Of a DNA stretch of 59,639 nucleotides, positions 15,296 through 59,639 are shown in pieces. The position numbers were made by a program, and so were the translations under genes. The stretch comes from Candidatus Liptonbacteria bacterium (GTDB lineage Bacteria > Patescibacteriota > Minisyncoccia > UBA6257 > 2-01-FULL-56-20): positions 1-59,639 of the forward strand of contig JACPLI010000021.1 of the NCBI GenBank assembly GCA_016186635.1. Direction: 5' to 3'. The stretch's first letter is position 1; each line of letters begins with the position of its first letter. The notes under the pieces are model-generated. The model ran no database searches, was not told the origin of the DNA, and saw only the letters and a list, made by a program, of their open reading frames with translations.

Positions 15296-15312
15296 GCGCC
15301 GAGTTATCCACA
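15296..15312 (+). promoter_or_regulatory. gcgccgagTTATCCACA motif (perfect DnaA-box nonamer)
   Basis: 17-nt direct repeat also at 15427-15443. A related copy is at 24081-24097. Confidence 0.4.
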
Positions 15313-15426
15313 AGTATCCCCTTATTACATACGTATCGGTTGTCATTCCCGCGGAAGCGGGAATCTAGGGCCTGGATCCCCCCGCGTGGGCGGGGATGAC
15401 AGAAGCATTATGTGATGAAGGGAGAG

Positions 15427-15443
15427 GCGCCGAGTTATCCACA
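15427..15443 (+). promoter_or_regulatory. gcgccgagTTATCCACA motif, second copy
   Basis: 17/17 identical to 15296-15312. Lies 58 nt upstream of the ATG at 15501. Confidence 0.4.
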
Positions 15444-21387: not shown

Positions 21388-21395
<8 letters not shown>

Positions 21396-21606
21396 GCACC
21401 TGCCAGCAACCCTCTCTTTTTCTAGAATTGAGAATCTTAAGAAATTCGTTGCACCGCATTTTTACTATATCTTCGCATTCTTTTCGGGGAGTTTTATCTA
21501 TTTTAGGGTGAGGAAAAAAATAATCACCGCCCGAACCATAAAAATAACTGCCGAAGGCGCTCCTGATTTCTTTTGAGCTATAGAATTTTTTGCGGTTGAT
21601 TATCAT
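21388..21606 (-). CDS. small hypothetical protein (72 aa) in the low-GC island
   Basis: Its ATG overlaps the HNH stop codon as ATGA (21603-21606). AT-rich. Its 3' end overlaps the rpoD stop by 8 nt. Confidence 0.4.
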
Positions 21607-22091
21607 TTTTCCCAAGTGATATGTCCGTTTATATCGTACTTTTCGTAAGTTTCCAAAACATCAGCGCAAAACTTCATCAGCTCATCGTTCTTTTCACTCT
21701 TGGCTAATTCGTAGAGACGAATAAACATTTTCTTTCCTGTTTCGGTTTGGTTGAGCATTTTCTTTTGATAATTGTGCTGACCACATAAAACTTGCCCATT
21801 TTCTATCGTGGCTTCGCCACCTCTATCTTTCGGCTTAATATGATCAACGTGCAATTCCACGCCGTCTTTAATCCCTCTACCACACACAACGCATTTATAT
21901 CCGTCTCTTTCCAAAATTGCTTTCTTTTGTGCGGCAGTAAAATCGTAAAGTTCGCGTTTATGCACTGTTTCAGGATCATATCTATAAACTCCTTTTGCGA
22001 CTTTTATTAAAAATCCGCTTTGTGCTAAATGACGAATAGCGCGGTCAGGGTCACGAAAAACACCTCCTGTTCGTTTTTTATACGCTGACAC
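21603..22091 (-). CDS. HNH endonuclease with an N-terminal wHTH-like region
   Basis: CVVCGRG...LHVDHIKPKDRGGEATIENGQVLCGQHNYQKK. The listed start is GTG. The frame stays open upstream to a single TGA at 22149-22151. Confidence 0.8.
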   Translation of the reverse strand: MSAYKKRTGGVFRDPDRAIRHLAQSGFLIKVAKGVYRYDPETVHKRELYDFTAAQKKAILERDGYKCVVCGRGIKDGVELHVDHIKPKDRGGEATIENGQVLCGQHNYQKKMLNQTETGKKMFIRLYELAKSEKNDELMKFCADVLETYEKYDINGHITWEK

Positions 22092-22148
22092 TACCCAATC
22101 AACAACTTCGGGATGTTTAATATCTCGGTTTGGATTTTTCTTAAAGAA

Positions 22149-22352
22149 TCATAGGTACAATTTCTTCAGTGCAAAGTAATTTTTTCTCAAAAAACTCGAC
22201 TTGTATGCAGAAGTTGCTCGTTCAATTTTACTCAATAAAATCTGCAAAGCAAACAGTAACTCTCTTCTAAGCAAATTTGTCTTGCTTGGTTTCTCTCGAT
22301 GGGTTTCGGCAATTATGAAATCCCATTCTTGATCAAGATTGATGGTGTTCAT
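22149..22352 (-). CDS. small ORF (67 aa) in frame with the HNH gene across one TGA
   Basis: ATG at 22350-22352, 4 nt after the stop of the upstream gene. Ends in TGA, followed in the same frame by FFKKNPNRDIKHPEVVDWV-VSAYKK. Confidence 0.45.
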   Translation of the reverse strand: MNTINLDQEWDFIIAETHREKPSKTNLLRRELLFALQILLSKIERATSAYKSSFLRKNYFALKKLYL

Positions 22353-22356
22353 ATTT

Positions 22357-23424
22357 TTATTTTTTGTTAGTTGATAAGCTTTCAATCATCTCGATGCTCT
22401 TGTGCAGTTGGAGCATCAAAATAAATCTAAATCCAGCGGGCGTTATTACGACCTGTTGCCCGACCTTACCAAGCAGTTCCAGATCAATCGCAAAATTAAG
22501 AAATGTGTAAGTGGCCGTACTTAAAGATTTTTTCGCCTGCCACTCATTTACTTTTCCCGACACTCTTTTGAACATATCTCGCAAATCCGATAATTCAAGC
22601 GGGTACGAATTTCGCGACAACAAAAATGCGCTTTCAACGATAGAATACACGCCGAATACCGTTGAAGAATAAAATGGGTCGCTGGCTACGAATTGTTTGA
22701 GTATTTCGATCTGCTTTTCGCTCAACTTATCTACGAGGACATCGCTGTTGCACCATTGAACATATTGGTCGCCAATATCGGTGAGAAAATAATGTTTATC
22801 TCGCTCGCGGGCTAAACCGAACTCTTGAGCAACTTTCAAATGATTGTGGATACTCTGTTTAGATAAGTTGGTTTGAATAGCAATTTTTTCTTGATTGGTT
22901 TCACCAGTCCCAAGACGAATTAACGCCCTATTGATAAGTCCCAAATTGAAAACACCGTAATCATTAGGTTTAATTTTCAAGAATGGCGCAACGGCTGAAA
23001 GGTTGTTAAAGTAATCTTTAAGGGTATCCAGTGGGTCATAGACAATCAATTCAACATCACTTTGCTTTGCTAGTTCAAAATCTTTGCCTTTTGCTTCTGT
23101 CACCAACAAAAAAGAAAGTATGTCGCCAGCAACCAATTCGCTAGCATTTTGTAAATTCACAAGTTCATCTCGGTAAGAAAGTATCTGTTTCAGCCAATCT
23201 TCGGAAAAGCCTACTACTTTTAGCTCGACAAGGCACAAGTTTTTACCGCTCGACAAAAGCAAATCAATCCGCTCCTCGCCCGATTTCAACCTTAATTGCC
23301 GCGCGATCAGCTTAATATCAGGCGGAAGTTTCAATGTTTTTGAAAGAAAAACCAAATTGGCGACAAGCGCGTCCTCAATTTGGCTTTCGCTTATATTTTT
23401 CTCTTTTTTGCCTTGCGTAGCCAT
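22357..23424 (-). CDS. NucS-like PD-(D/E)xK nuclease domain plus wHTH protein (355 aa)
   Basis: ESQIEDALVANL..RQLRLKSGEERIDLLLSSGKNLCLVELKVVG..QILSYRDEL fits the D...E-x-K pattern. A central HTH (NQEKIAIQTNLSKQSIHNHLKVAQEFGL) follows. Confidence 0.6.
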   Translation of the reverse strand: MATQGKKEKNISESQIEDALVANLVFLSKTLKLPPDIKLIARQLRLKSGEERIDLLLSSGKNLCLVELKVVGFSEDWLKQILSYRDELVNLQNASELVAGDILSFLLVTEAKGKDFELAKQSDVELIVYDPLDTLKDYFNNLSAVAPFLKIKPNDYGVFNLGLINRALIRLGTGETNQEKIAIQTNLSKQSIHNHLKVAQEFGLARERDKHYFLTDIGDQYVQWCNSDVLVDKLSEKQIEILKQFVASDPFYSSTVFGVYSIVESAFLLSRNSYPLELSDLRDMFKRVSGKVNEWQAKKSLSTATYTFLNFAIDLELLGKVGQQVVITPAGFRFILMLQLHKSIEMIESLSTNKK

Positions 23425-24047
23425 AATGGATATATTTTAGCATTATTTATGCCAATATCTCGAATAATATCAAGCACTATTCCTTGAATAGAAACATCTC
23501 TTCCATTTCGGAAAATAAGCGGCTCCATATTCTTATTTGCCGGTTGTAGCCGAATATACCCACGCTCTTTATAAAATTTCTTTAACGTTGCTTCGTGATT
23601 ATCAATAAGGGCTACCACTTTCTGCCCGTTTTCGGCGGTATCCTGTTGCTGGACTAACACGATATCGCCGTCGTTGATGTTCTCGTCAACCATGCTGTCC
23701 CCGACGACGCGGAGCGCATAGACCTCTGACGAAGAAGGAATTTTGCTTTTCGGAACCGCAATCGTTTCCTTTTCTTGAATCGCCTCAATCGGTTGCCCTG
23801 CGGCGATGCGCCCGAGCAGGGGAACGCGGACGAGTTCCATCTCCGGGTCCGTAACCGTAACTGCGCGGGCGCGTCTCGGGGCTTTCTGAAGATAGCCCTT
23901 TCCGCGCAATGTTTCCAAATGTTCATGGGCGGTGGAGGCCGAGATGCGAAAGTGTTTCGCAATCTCGCGCTCCGATGGCGCAACGTCGTTTTTTTCGATG
24001 GTTTTCTTCACAAAATCGCTTATTTGTTTTTGGCGCGGGGTAAGCAT
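23391..24047 (-). CDS. lexA: LexA repressor
   Basis: wHTH N-terminus, AAG|Q cleavage site, GDSM and TLKKF catalytic Ser/Lys motifs. The C-terminus is ~25 aa longer than expected and AT-rich. Confidence 0.9.
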   Translation of the reverse strand: MLTPRQKQISDFVKKTIEKNDVAPSEREIAKHFRISASTAHEHLETLRGKGYLQKAPRRARAVTVTDPEMELVRVPLLGRIAAGQPIEAIQEKETIAVPKSKIPSSSEVYALRVVGDSMVDENINDGDIVLVQQQDTAENGQKVVALIDNHEATLKKFYKERGYIRLQPANKNMEPLIFRNGRDVSIQGIVLDIIRDIGINNAKIYPLWLRKAKKRKI

Positions 24048-24088
24048 ACATATAGTATAGCATGACGACCCGAGCAAAAACCGAGCAG

Positions 24089-24097
24089 TTATCCACA
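24089..24097 (+). promoter_or_regulatory. TTATCCACA nonamer in the lexA / membrane-protein divergent region
   Basis: Context ccgagcagTTATCCACAg resembles the 15296 and 15427 copies. Confidence 0.35.
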
Positions 24098-24142
24098 GCT
24101 TTGCATCTGGCAGACGTTGATATAACATATAAACAAACTTTA

Positions 24143-24682
24143 ATGGAACCGATTGCATGGTTTCTCAAGCTTATCCATCGGGGATTCTTTTCTTCTGAAC
24201 TCAAAGAGGAAGAAAAAGCGTTTATACAAGACAACATCCGGAAACATCGGATTGTGCTTTGGATAAACGTCGTGGCCGCCATTTTCATCTACGAAAGTCT
24301 TCGCCGCACGCCGCTTGAGTCGGTGGGGACGGTGATCGCCTCGCTCATCGCTCCGGTCATGGTATTGGGCACTGCATGGTTCGCCATCAGCTTCGGGGGC
24401 GTGCCACAGCGGCTCATCAACATCGCGATGAGCGTGAGTTTTTGGATGTTCACCGCGTTCGTCACCTCGCTCTCCGCGATGTTTATCGCAGTGGCCTTTG
24501 TCACTTCGCCCTACCTCTGGCCGGTGCTTGTTCTTATCTATCTCGGTGCGCTCATCAGTTGTATCCAGTATGATACCGCAGACGGACTCAAAGCGGGACT
24601 CGACGAAGCGGTCTTGCGCCATTCGCGCGCCGCGCTTTCGTACTATCACAGGCAGGGGATTAAGGAGGAGGAGGAGGAGTGA
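24143..24682 (+). CDS. multi-pass membrane protein, hypothetical
   Basis: Four to five hydrophobic segments. Start chosen at the MEPIAWF Met (the ORF opens at 24062). Confidence 0.5.
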   Translation: MEPIAWFLKLIHRGFFSSELKEEEKAFIQDNIRKHRIVLWINVVAAIFIYESLRRTPLESVGTVIASLIAPVMVLGTAWFAISFGGVPQRLINIAMSVSFWMFTAFVTSLSAMFIAVAFVTSPYLWPVLVLIYLGALISCIQYDTADGLKAGLDEAVLRHSRAALSYYHRQGIKEEEEE

Positions 24683-56268: not shown

Positions 56269-56323
56269 GTGTGGATAAGTAACTTTTTGCATAGGGGGGC
56301 GGCGCGTTTTATACTTTCATCAT

Positions 56324-57780: not shown

Positions 57781-59639
57781 ATGAGACATAACTCCGTGGC
57801 AACTTTTTTGACGGCAACGGGCAGGTTTGGTGCAGGGACACGGGATTTTTTGTGCCCGCGCATCAATGTGGGGAAGTCGGACTTCCTTAAGGAAGTCCGA
57901 CTTCCCCACATTGGAATCTTGTTTGCCCTGCTCATTGCTCTTGGTTTTTTGCTTTTTGCCGCCGCTCCGCGGCAGGCGCACGCCCAGTACCAAGGTCCCC
58001 CCACGGGGTGCACGCCAGGGACCTGCTCGGGCAACTTGGGATTCGGCGCGGGCGGGCGGTTTGCGGTGGGAACCTCCACTCCCTTCAGCGATGCGCGGTT
58101 TGTGATTGTCACCTCTTCTTCTTTGTGGACGAGCTCCTCCACTCCCCAAAGCGAGTTTGCACTCAAAGTGGTGAACTACCCCTGTCCGAACGGTCAGCAG
58201 TACTGCCCGCCTATTTTTGCCATCCGGAACGACGGCTCGGTTGTAATCGGCGGCGGTCAGGGAGGGGGAGGTTCGTCGTACTACAACCCGCCAAACTCAA
58301 GCTACTACCAAGGGCTCACCGTCTGGGGGCCGACGTTCGTGAATGGGCCGCTCTCCGCGGGGGATTTTGTGAGCACGGTGAACGCGCAGAAAATCAGCCC
58401 GAATGTGTTTAACAACGGCACGTCGGGGAATTATGCCTTTCCCCCGGGGAAGCTCGGCGTGAACACCTCGACGAACGTGAGCATCCCGCAGGAGCTCTCG
58501 GTCTACGGTGGCGGGTACTTCAGCGGCAACGTCGGCATCGGGACGACGGCGCCGCAAAACAAACTGGTGGTGCAAGGCGCCGCCAACACCGCGCCGTTTG
58601 TCATTGACCAGCCCGACGCCAATACGACAAGCTCTGTGGAAATTCGGCTGTATGGAGACGCGCATACGGCGGCAAACAGATATGCGGCAATTCGTGAGGT
58701 AAATAATGGGGGCGCTAACGTCAACGAGCTTGCTTTTTTGACCGCCAATCAGGGTACACCTACGGAAAAAGTTAGAATAGATTATCTCGGCAGAGTCGGC
58801 ATCGGGACGACGGCACCGGATTCTAAATTGCACGTGGTGACGAGTAACGCGAGCGGAGCCCCTTACGGGAGTTCATGGACAGACAGGTTCTTAGTGGTTG
58901 GTGCGGCGGGCATCGGAGGTGGAATTGGTATTGGTTGGGATTCCACTTTGCCCGCAGGAATCATCCAATCCGCGATTCCAAATACCGGATACAGAAATCT
59001 CGCGCTGAATCCAAACGGCGGCTCTGTTGGCATCGGCACCACCCAGCCGTCGTCCACGCTCCACGTGATTGGGAACGTGCAGACATCGGGTAACTTCATC
59101 GGCGGGCTTTCGGGCACGGTCTCCGCGCAGAACGTTACGCCGAACGTCTTCAACAACGGCACGGCGGGAAACTATAGTTTCCCAAGCTCGGTGGGCATCG
59201 CGACCTCGACGAACGTGAGCATCCCGCAGGAGCTCTCCGTGTACGGGGACCAGTACGTGAGCGGCAACGTCGGCATCGGGACGACGAGTCCGACCGAAAA
59301 ATTAGTGGTGGGGACCGATTTGGGCGATGTCGCAAGCGACGTTGGGCTTGTGGTAGGCGGCACGACGTATGCGCAGACCGTGCTGGGAAATGCCGGCAAC
59401 AACCGCGCCATTCTTACCTGGCTAGCCAGCGCGCCCTATTTCAGCATTGGCACGATCCAAGGCGGCACGAATTACTTCGATACCTTGACAGTGAAAAGCG
59501 GCAACGTCGGCATCGGGACGAGCACGCCGCAGGAAATTTTGGATGTGAATGACGCGATTGTCTCTCGCGGGGCGCGCGGGACGGGAATCAATAACTATAG
59601 TAGCCAGACTGTAGCACTAATGAATACTGATGATGGTAC
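57781..59639 (+). CDS. large secreted surface protein, partial (runs off the window)
   Basis: Frame 1 is open from the ATG at 57781 to the window end (hand-translated). Signal-like ILFALLIALGFLLFAAAPRQAHA. SGNVGIGTT.P..KLVV motif recurs at least 5 times. Confidence 0.7.
   Translation, partial: MRHNSVATFLTATGRFGAGTRDFLCPRINVGKSDFLKEVRLPHIGILFALLIALGFLLFAAAPRQAHAQYQGPPTGCTPGTCSGNLGFGAGGRFAVGTSTPFSDARFVIVTSSSLWTSSSTPQSEFALKVVNYPCPNGQQYCPPIFAIRNDGSVVIGGGQGGGGSSYYNPPNSSYYQGLTVWGPTFVNGPLSAGDFVSTVNAQKISPNVFNNGTSGNYAFPPGKLGVNTSTNVSIPQELSVYGGGYFSGNVGIGTTAPQNKLVVQGAANTAPFVIDQPDANTTSSVEIRLYGDAHTAANRYAAIREVNNGGANVNELAFLTANQGTPTEKVRIDYLGRVGIGTTAPDSKLHVVTSNASGAPYGSSWTDRFLVVGAAGIGGGIGIGWDSTLPAGIIQSAIPNTGYRNLALNPNGGSVGIGTTQPSSTLHVIGNVQTSGNFIGGLSGTVSAQNVTPNVFNNGTAGNYSFPSSVGIATSTNVSIPQELSVYGDQYVSGNVGIGTTSPTEKLVVGTDLGDVASDVGLVVGGTTYAQTVLGNAGNNRAILTWLASAPYFSIGTIQGGTNYFDTLTVKSGNVGIGTSTPQEILDVNDAIVSRGARGTGINNYSSQTVALMNTDDG
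57867..57910. repeat. perfect 44-nt palindrome of the gaagtccgacttc family
   Basis: tgtggggaagtcggacttcc-ttaa-ggaagtccgacttccccaca. Lies in the 5' region of the surface-protein ORF (VGKSDFLKEVRLPH). Confidence 0.9.

Follow-up and report, generated by a model that had tools for sequence, protein, structure and literature searches.

In a 59.6-kb stretch of DNA from a Candidatus Liptonbacteria bacterium (59,639 nucleotides, hereafter the window), a low-GC island between the convergent genes rpoD and lexA was found to hold the remains of a type II restriction-modification (R-M) system, the methylase of which, called here M1, has evidently been replaced by a cassette of two genes. The cassette (22149 to 23449, minus strand) consists of a short leader, a gene for a predicted nuclease of 355 residues (p355) and a gene for a small protein of 67 residues (p67). 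It was delimited as a gap in homology against cassette-free loci encoding LexA, M1 and an HNH endonuclease, and it is conserved in 26 loci. All the sequences compared, those of the window as well as those of its relatives, are metagenomic, and the related loci were numbered L001 to L114.

The limits of the replaced segment were read from DNA homology between the window and 8 LexA-M1-HNH loci. Homology extends from 23807 to 23450, where it ends at LexA residue 199 ('...RDIG'), and resumes at 22148/22149, next to the stop codon of p67, to continue through to the stop of the HNH gene. These end points clearly indicate that the segment 23449-22149 (leader, p355 and p67) took the place of the entire M1 moiety and of the first 19 HNH codons, and that the slot ancestrally contained a LexA-M1 fusion, then HNH, then a small border gene, p75. 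The absence of M1 from the window is thus explained by its replacement by p355-p67. A tblastn search across the 59.6 kb for homologs of M1, and of a second methylase called M2 that is described below, gave nothing convincing. One marginal match was obtained at 59308-59439 (E = 0.015), with 35% identity over 48 residues to the C-terminal part of an M1 remnant; it may correspond to an unrelated N6_N4-type methylase cut by the end of the window.

On the lexA side, lexA proper (residues 1-199, 23451 to 24047, minus strand) encodes a winged helix-turn-helix (wHTH) DNA-binding domain, an AAG cleavage site and an S24 domain (Ser of GDSM, Lys of TLKK), and the protein is recognised by NCBIfam TIGR00498 (1.1e-57) and by Pfam PF01726 and PF00717. 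The open reading frame (ORF) listed for lexA spans 23391-24047 on the minus strand: past residue 199 it runs into a foreign tail of 19 residues, INNAKIYPLWLRKAKKRKI* (23391 to 23450, minus strand), which is encoded by the leader of the cassette and, in another frame, by the initial 34 nt of p355, and which stands in place of the linker and methylase moiety of a former LexA-M1 fusion. The leader (23425-23449, minus strand) is 25 nt long, AT-rich, and contains TGCTAAAAT, an extended -10-like motif. The start of p355 overlaps the end of lexA by 34 nt in four loci, the window, L025, L026 and L027, and the junction and LexA tail of the window recur with this overlap in the three relatives, the tail being the same in L025 and L026.

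The island stands out by its composition. The GC content of 21396-23650 is 0.388, the minimum among all 2255-nt stretches of the window (median 0.561, 5th percentile 0.484), and the flanking genes rpoD and dnaG have values of 0.573 and 0.615, respectively. The break falls inside lexA, codons 1-130 having a GC content of 0.55 and codons 131-199 of 0.40. An assembly chimera is an unlikely cause of this break, because the identical lexA-p355 junction is found in three other, independent assemblies (L025, L026 and L027). The first-pass annotation of the window had rightly described a low-GC island at this place and four tightly packed minus-strand ORFs, the first overlapping lexA by 34 nt, all of which agree with the ORF list.

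The downstream neighbour of the cassette was identified from a survey in which metagenome contigs were searched with the HNH protein. Among the 397 relatives found, the best 80 (69-94% identity) were examined. In 70 of these 80 loci HNH directly follows a plain, full-length M1, a beta-class N6_N4 methylase with an SPPYN motif, and 2 of the 80 carry genes of the p355/p67 families. On this evidence M1 and HNH make up a classical type II R-M family, in which the HNH gene encodes the restriction enzyme. Since M1 is directly upstream in 70 of the 80 loci and absent from the window, what is left in the window is a remnant of this kind of system. The earlier argument that no methyltransferase is present, and hence that this is not an R-M system, does not hold: HNH comes from the type II M1-HNH family, and a truncated M1 precedes p355 in relatives of the window.

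The HNH gene of the window (21603 to 22148, minus strand) is a genuine nuclease gene, as annotated, with a Pfam PF01844 match at 4e-10, an intact HNH motif and generic PtuB/REase_II HNH-domain matches in PADLOC; it is however not complete. Its frame is open right after the TGA of p67, and the first canonical start is a GTG at 22091. The protein is 94% identical to the full-length HNH of L030 (200 residues), whose gene begins MKKDNGKKNNHVQKDLIVEFF..., and in native HNH genes 38 codons precede the position of the window's GTG (in L030, MKKDNGKKNNHVQKDLIVEFFRKNPNRDIKHPEVVDWV|VSAY...). The last 19 of these 38 codons remain, fused in frame right behind the TGA of p67, while the native ATG, the ribosome-binding site and the first 19 codons, including part of a predicted N-terminal winged helix, are missing. 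The HNH 5' end is missing in all cassette loci, with no conserved alternative start, and in at least 10 p355 loci HNH is fragmentary or absent. As a side observation, the TGA of p67 (22149-22151) abuts the open HNH frame in frame (…KKLYL*FFKKNPNRDIKHPEVVDWV…), and read-through would give a p67-HNH fusion; this abutment is probably coincidental, because the two frames differ in other lineages.

These data bear on the proposal, made by the first-pass annotation, of an integrated, SOS-induced two-nuclease module formed by p355, p67, HNH and p75 and acting in defence or DNA processing. In its favour, the genes follow lexA closely on a single strand and no terminator intervenes, the HNH frame is open with the p67 stop in the same frame, the dN/dS of HNH in cassette loci is low (0.03-0.09), and p355, p67 and HNH occur together in about 9 loci. 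Yet HNH has M1 as its regular partner, in 70 of the 80 loci and without p355; the HNH of cassette loci never has its native start and is often reduced to a fragment or lost; the HNH and p355 phylogenies are discordant, cassette-linked HNHs being polyphyletic; and p75 travels elsewhere with other restriction enzymes. We consider a single four-gene module improbable. The linkage of p355 homologs to HNH and LexA genes on which the annotation had counted was found in the gene neighbourhoods, for a reason that differs from the one it gave.

That reason lies in the organisation of the M1-HNH loci themselves. In at least 17 of the 80 HNH loci examined, lexA is immediately upstream, and in 14 of the 16 loci tested lexA and M1 form one ORF of 460-490 residues (...GIVLDVIRDIG-linker-M1), as in L030 (923-2356) and also in L033-L037, L057, L060, L063, L070, L080, L084 and L095. 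The fusions combine LexA_DNA_bind, Peptidase_S24 and N6_N4_Mtase domains. When one of them was used in a database search, about 100 of the top 120 clusters shared the LexA-methylase architecture; their name at NCBI is 'transcriptional repressor LexA', and they belong to Candidatus Vogelbacteria, Portnoybacteria, Jorgensenbacteria and Paceibacterota. We found no description of LexA-methylase fusions, nor of the p355-p67 cassette, in the literature searched, and the fusion genes of Parcubacteria appear to be an unreported feature. As read from these loci, the link of the cassette to lexA is inherited from a LexA-methylase fusion operon and was not created by the cassette. Of the lexA linkage first annotated, the overlap, the lack of a terminator and a plausible co-transcription therefore stand, and the origin of the link has to be sought in this inheritance. 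In L010 (4304-4978) and L017 (4091-4990), inspection of the sequences pointed to a putative excisionase/MerR-like HTH at the N-terminus of M1, in the place of LexA (…YTTKEAA.YLG.SP.TIYRMEK.GL…), which suggests that M1 is generally fused to a DNA-binding regulator. As in HTH-methylases and C-protein control, the N-terminal regulator of M1 puts the R-M operon under an autoregulated promoter; the difference is that this regulator is a complete SOS repressor with a self-cleaving S24 domain.

The p355-p67 pair was found in 26 loci from at least 12 phyla, archaea included. Carriers of p355 comprise 17 genome loci and several metagenome contigs, and the hosts are Bacteroidota, Parcubacteria, Planctomycetota, Chloroflexota, Zixibacteria and Omnitrophota, together with Chlamydiae, Brocadiaceae, a deltaproteobacterium, Woesearchaeota and Methanosarcinales. 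The usual neighbours of p355 are M1 upstream and HNH downstream, and remnants of M1, of HNH or of the lexA fusion are kept in 23 of the 26 cassette loci. Wherever M1 stands beside p355 it is truncated at its C-terminus, at no fewer than 9 different points, all near the p355 start; no intact M1 was found beside p355 among the 26 loci. In the window, L007, L025 and L028, p355 is intact in the absence of any methylase.

Several comparisons point to repeated transfer of the cassette. When 83 HNH sequences were placed in a tree, those linked to the cassette did not group together but were scattered among cassette-free ones: the window is placed beside L030-L032 (92-94% identity), L001 beside L059-L061 (93-94%), L022 beside L097, L015 and L016 beside L107, and L008 and L076 are on long branches. 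This scatter clearly indicates that the cassette entered at least five HNH lineages independently. The relationships of p355 disagree with this tree: the p355 of the window is 92% identical to that of L025, whereas the HNH remnants of the same two loci are only 49% identical. Between L001 and L008, nucleotide identity reaches 77-90% over a stretch that takes in the proximal M1 remnant, p355 and p67 and extends into HNH, and drops to 40-65% in the distal part of M1 and at the 3' end of HNH. A core of high identity within diverged M1 and HNH flanks implies that the cassette was carried into resident loci by recombination. The comparisons establish, as far as sequences can, that it moves between R-M alleles by crossovers in the outer halves of M1 and HNH; on this reading the left crossover of the window is the GC break inside lexA.

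Such mobility raises the question of a homing-type selfish element, in which p355 would cut an intact M1|HNH junction and repair from a cassette-bearing copy would install p355-p67 and destroy the target, p67 helping for instance by neutralising residual HNH. Intronless homing spreads by recombination with co-conversion of flanks, and p355 resembles the free-standing homing endonucleases of phage T4 (seg/mob) as a nuclease gene placed between conserved genes, polymorphic in occurrence and associated with flank co-conversion. Its presence or absence is polymorphic at one defined position of a widespread gene pair, with five or more independent entries and co-conversion-like mosaic flanks (L001 versus L008). 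The region missing in every cassette locus would have held the target, hence providing self-immunity; two wHTH domains and a dimerisation helix could enable the nuclease to recognise a long site; and the deletion end points cluster at the cassette border. Against this, the DNA of the segment that all cassette loci have lost is poorly conserved between the two invaded R-M subtypes (L030 type versus L107 type), whereas the recognition domain of p355 is nearly invariant, and no conserved empty target was identified. Donor-templated homologous repair should not yield new, lineage-specific deletions, whereas the p355 insertion deletes parts of both neighbours with junctions proper to each lineage, and comes with an obligatory second gene. 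Moreover, p355 is under long-term purifying selection (dN/dS 0.03-0.13) and remains intact where no target is left, and the presence of the cassette in 2 of 80 HNH loci argues against an efficient drive. We regard homing as rather unlikely. Two other mobile origins were rejected. For an integrative element, no integrase and no meaningful direct or inverted repeats (att or terminal) bounding the island or the cassette were found. For a prophage or viral origin, p355 had no relative in IMG/VR, PHROGs gave only generic HNH matches, and the fold matches in BFVD were uninformative.

The p355 gene (22357 to 23424, minus strand) encodes an N-terminal NucS-type PD-(D/E)xK domain (residues ~8-145), a first wHTH (wHTH-1, ~160-215), a second one (wHTH-2, ~254-327) and a long C-terminal helix. 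This architecture was obtained from an AlphaFold model (pLDDT 78) showing an alpha/beta nuclease domain at the N-terminus, two winged helices and the long terminal helix; the 'unassigned C-terminal domain' of the first-pass annotation is indeed present, and is now resolved as the second winged helix and the long helix. With Foldseek, the nuclease domain best matched the NucS/EndoMS structure 2vld (E = 6.5e-5, rmsd 2.8, 121 columns), the structures 2vld and 5gke together giving E values of 6.5e-5 to 3.5e-4 and rmsd of 2.8-3.1 over 121 columns; the top 50 matches of p355 comprised NucS, Bax1 and wHTH regulators. In the alignment of 33 homologs, residues E13, E17, D54, E67, K69, Q80 and Y84 are invariant, among them the catalytic D/E/K triad (D54, E67 and K69), and residues 303-347, in the wHTH-2/C-terminal region, are nearly so. 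The NucS-type nuclease and wHTH assignment made at first is thus borne out as a description of the fold, D-ExK being the catalytic motif in both families. The lack of a mismatch-binding domain nevertheless places p355 outside the NucS family proper: NucS has its nuclease domain at the C-terminus, behind a dimeric mismatch/single-stranded-DNA-binding domain, whereas in p355 it is N-terminal and followed by the two wHTH domains and the helix, and the identity between the two is 16%.

Sequence libraries gave weak matches, to wHTH families and an SfsA-type nuclease domain in Pfam, where no NucS/DUF91 match was obtained, and to ArsR/Sso10a-type wHTH proteins among PDB sequences. In PADLOC, the nuclease domain matched PDC-S18 (2.9e-6 over 64 residues) and, weakly, PDC-S11 and PDC-S02. 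With matches that are weak and at the level of nuclease or HNH domains for p355 and HNH, and none for p67 and p75, we agree with the earlier view that this is no named defence system. The family is small: p355 has 223 database homologs, the best 120 at 57-94% identity, and a profile search of 1.84 billion representatives returned 164 clusters, about 25 of them full length (337-384 residues), and no other domain architecture. Across pairs with dS above 0.5-1.7, the dN/dS of p355 is 0.03-0.13. Synonymous divergence is uniform along the gene, the invariant C-terminus included (0.53-0.61), and the constraint therefore acts on the protein; an RNA or DNA element embedded in the gene was rejected as an explanation of the invariant C-terminus on the same figures, equal to those of the remainder of the gene. 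The invariance of the catalytic residues likewise led us to reject p355 as a non-catalytic regulator. Taken at the level of its sequence, p355 presents itself clearly as an active-looking nuclease under strong purifying selection, with two predicted DNA-reading modules.

The p67 gene (22149 to 22352, minus strand) starts with an ATG at 22352, 4 nt past the p355 stop, and ends with the TGA at 22149-22151. Members of its family, 62-89 residues long, are located directly downstream of p355 in all cassette loci. They are predicted to be small three-helix proteins, with the conserved motif (K/R)RE(L/I)LFxLQxLL...Y..K..Y, and their dN/dS is 0.13-0.30. No family of Pfam, NCBIfam, PHROG or PADLOC was matched, and a single-sequence AF2 model (pLDDT 69) had no Foldseek match with E below 5. 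An invariant two-gene architecture with a small, faster-evolving partner is what a toxin-antitoxin or abortive-infection pair hitch-hiking in a recombination hot spot would display, and the weak matches of the nuclease domain to PDC-S18, PDC-S11 and PDC-S02, which are candidate defence families, would suit it. Such a pair would however leave unexplained the near-exclusive location at M1|HNH and the obligatory truncation of both neighbours; toxins of this kind would moreover not typically come first in a large-then-small gene order, possess two DNA-reading domains or be as extremely conserved as p355, and we give this explanation very little likelihood.

As to function, our preferred reading is drawn by analogy and remains tentative, its chances being in our estimation somewhat short of even: p355 may be a modification-dependent nuclease aimed at the mark or site of M1 and incompatible with M1. 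The two winged helices of this endonuclease would read the DNA mark or site of M1, the near-invariant wHTH-2 would match the conserved specificity region of the methylase, and the role of p355 towards M1 would be that of Drg or DpnI towards Dam or DpnII. Cells swapping M1-HNH for p355-p67 would restrict phage and DNA coming from M1-methylating neighbours, with p67 as an obligate partner that could be an inhibitor, an establishment factor or a subunit. With modification-dependent enzymes p355 shares a nuclease joined to predicted DNA-reading domains and the dispensability of a cognate methylase, and its conserved wHTH-2 finds a parallel in the highly conserved target-recognition region of M1.

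The analogy rests on several precedents. DpnI and DpnII cassettes are exchanged by homologous recombination of their flanks. These pneumococcal loci are alternative cassettes in one chromosomal slot, made either of methylase(s) and a restriction enzyme or of dpnC and dpnD, and the methylase-less one consists of the nuclease gene dpnC and the second gene dpnD (PMC3573125). In R.DpnI, an N-terminal PD-(D/E)xK domain is followed by a winged helix at the C-terminus, and the methylated site is read by both domains (PMC3424567, PMC4117772). The domain order of p355 is that of R.DpnI, and p67 parallels dpnD. p355 differs by a second winged helix, 100 additional residues and the lack of sequence homology, and the cassette differs in using the outer halves of the R-M genes themselves as homology arms, so that truncated remnants of the displaced system stay behind. 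In Neisseria, drg, the 'dam-replacing gene' (NmeBII/Drg), is inserted in dam, which it truncates, has a lower GC content than the genome, and encodes an enzyme that cuts only methylated GATC (PMC4269198); it is sometimes still followed by a DpnII-type restriction enzyme gene, and it lies beside a housekeeping gene in a hot spot of recombination (PMC4269198). The window presents the same picture with its replaced methylase, a GC content of 0.39 versus 0.56, lexA as a neighbour and an HNH restriction enzyme remnant downstream. On the other hand, Drg is a homolog of DpnI, to which p355 has no detectable similarity; p355 is always paired with p67; Drg cuts methylated DNA, whereas methylation dependence is for p355 a matter of analogy; and the methylase displaced in the window was part of a LexA-fused R-M system, that displaced by drg being a solitary Dam. 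In Pectobacterium, experiments have demonstrated epigenetic conflict of an R-M system with a methylation-dependent nuclease (PMC8989522).

Several points weigh against a modification-dependent p355. It matched none of the known modification-dependent enzymes (DpnI, Drg, Mrr) in sequence or fold, either among PDB sequences or in the Foldseek top 50; one Mrr-domain protein (E = 9e-3) was noted among the viral models matched by its fold. In L015, L016 and L024, M1 is short by about 12-25 C-terminal residues and could still be active. Acquisition of p355 should kill a cell methylated by M1, unless establishment is buffered by p67 or by hemimethylation. Active, nuclease-driven mobility might instead account for the strictly local insertion at the M|R junction and for the clustering of deletion end points at the p355 start. 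Finally, this reading did not predict M2, a second, unrelated small methylase (MT227 type, PF01555; motif I DPMCGSGTT before FIDSPY), found in 7 of the 26 cassette loci versus 0 of 78 cassette-free M1-HNH loci. M2 is encoded in L027 (1439-2122), L068 (299-967), L076 (1716-1965) and L022 (6749-7516), and remnants occur in L008, L012 and L026; its position varies, being in some loci between the small protein and HNH and in others downstream of HNH. The M2 gene of L022 also holds an Mrr_cat-like part.

The restriction of M2 to cassette loci could mean that p355, p67 and M2 are the restriction enzyme, controller and methylase of an R-M system of their own, which displaced M1-HNH and whose window copy lost M2. 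In L027, p354, p83 and M2 form an overlapping operon directly behind lexA, as such a system would. However, an identical p354 is intact in L026, where M2 is in fragments; 19 cassette loci, the window among them, have no M2, and an unprotected restriction enzyme should be lethal; and the variable position of M2, before or after HNH, does not fit. We hold this explanation to be very unlikely.

In the window, the modification-dependent nuclease proposed above would also be wired to the SOS response. Because the 34-nt overlap would couple the cassette translationally to lexA, the cassette probably follows LexA autoregulation and SOS induction, and this wiring would be an inheritance rather than an adaptation to the cassette. 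That the cassette is transcribed together with lexA is plausible, since the overlap is conserved and a search of the minus strand from lexA to the cassette found no terminator-like site. p355 could also be transcribed independently from the -10-like motif of the leader (TGCTAAAAT at 23434-23442); promoter-like matches in the region are not above chance. A control region upstream of lexA (24070 to 24097, minus strand) contains a direct repeat, TGCTCGG-TTTT-TGCTCGG (24070-24087, N4 spacer), unique in the window and closely followed by a TATACT box and the lexA ATG. The annotation had called for a LexA box here: the generic direct-repeat pattern KTTY-N7-KTTYKAT had no match at the lexA promoter, and TGCTCGG-N4-TGCTCGG is instead our candidate LexA operator. 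The same period of 11 nt is seen in AT-rich direct repeats of 7 nt, such as TTTCTAT-TTTG-TTTCTAT, at related lexA promoters. The candidate operator is located only upstream of lexA, and not at the cassette.

A joint reading would make of the locus an SOS-wired arena of epigenetic conflict, opposing a LexA-M1 restriction switch and p355-p67 as a mobile killer of R-M systems. In the switch, RecA-triggered self-cleavage of LexA would change methylase stability and operon expression together, upon damage or infection; p355-p67 would enter the M|R junction by its own nuclease, disable both genes and take over the LexA-controlled slot. We see this combination as a speculative one, with a low probability.

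The p355-p67 pair appears to be an unreported, domain-crossing cassette specialised on one R-M family, of a kind, the methylase-replacing nuclease, that is already known. Should p355 be modification-dependent, it would found a new and highly conserved nuclease family extending from CPR bacteria to archaea, members of which could serve as reagents for the detection of m4C or m6A. It would also provide a many-times-replicated natural case of a methylase replaced by an enzyme attacking its mark, generalising drg and DpnI/DpnII. Whatever its function, the cassette shows one R-M family repeatedly dismantled from inside. The LexA-methylase fusions (~100 clusters) tie R-M to the SOS repressor in minimal-genome Parcubacteria. 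For annotation, 'LexA' genes of 460-490 residues and orphan 'HNH endonucleases' near lexA in these phyla are to be read as R-M components.

The last gene of the island, p75/p72 (21388 to 21606, minus strand), is a conserved small gene at the downstream border of the slot, and belongs neither to the cassette nor to the M1-HNH unit. Its ATG at 21606 shares an ATGA overlap with the HNH stop, and its end at 21388 overlaps the stop of the convergent rpoD by 8 nt. The exact p72 protein of the window is on record on two contigs (the longest of 2,164 nt) that are possibly not independent of the window. No p75 homolog was found in more than 100 cassette or M1-HNH loci, and databases contained 3 homologs, at 66-81% identity. 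One of them, in L110-L113 (L110, 2846-5186), comes after a MutH-like enzyme, which itself follows a DPPY-type methylase fused to LexA; another, in L114 (2-724), after a Bpu10I-type enzyme; the third (P0124) follows an unannotated ORF of 100 residues. Because p75 homologs follow other restriction enzymes, the interval from lexA to p75 can be described as an R-M exchange slot; p75, judged by these neighbours, is the border gene of a lexA-linked slot in which different R-M systems are exchanged. In L091 (59-4486), dnaG, rpoD, M1 and HNH are on one strand, the R-M unit being directly behind rpoD, whereas rpoD is convergent in the window.

Two further features were observed around the lexA promoter. 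A perfect DnaA box (TTATCCACA) is located at 24089-24097, about 45 nt upstream of lexA, and a counterpart is found upstream of lexA in most related loci. The window contains 4 perfect DnaA boxes (24089-24097, 15304-15312, 15435-15443 and 56270-56278) versus 0.21 expected by chance; those at 15304 and 15435 flank the start, at 15396, of an ORF of 541 residues. Divergently from lexA, a membrane-protein ORF of 206 residues (24062-24682, plus strand) has a listed ATG that is separated from the lexA ATG by only 14 nt and falls within the lexA control region, where GC is low (0.40). As the GC content rises near 24250-24300, the real start of this ORF is probably downstream of the listed ATG.

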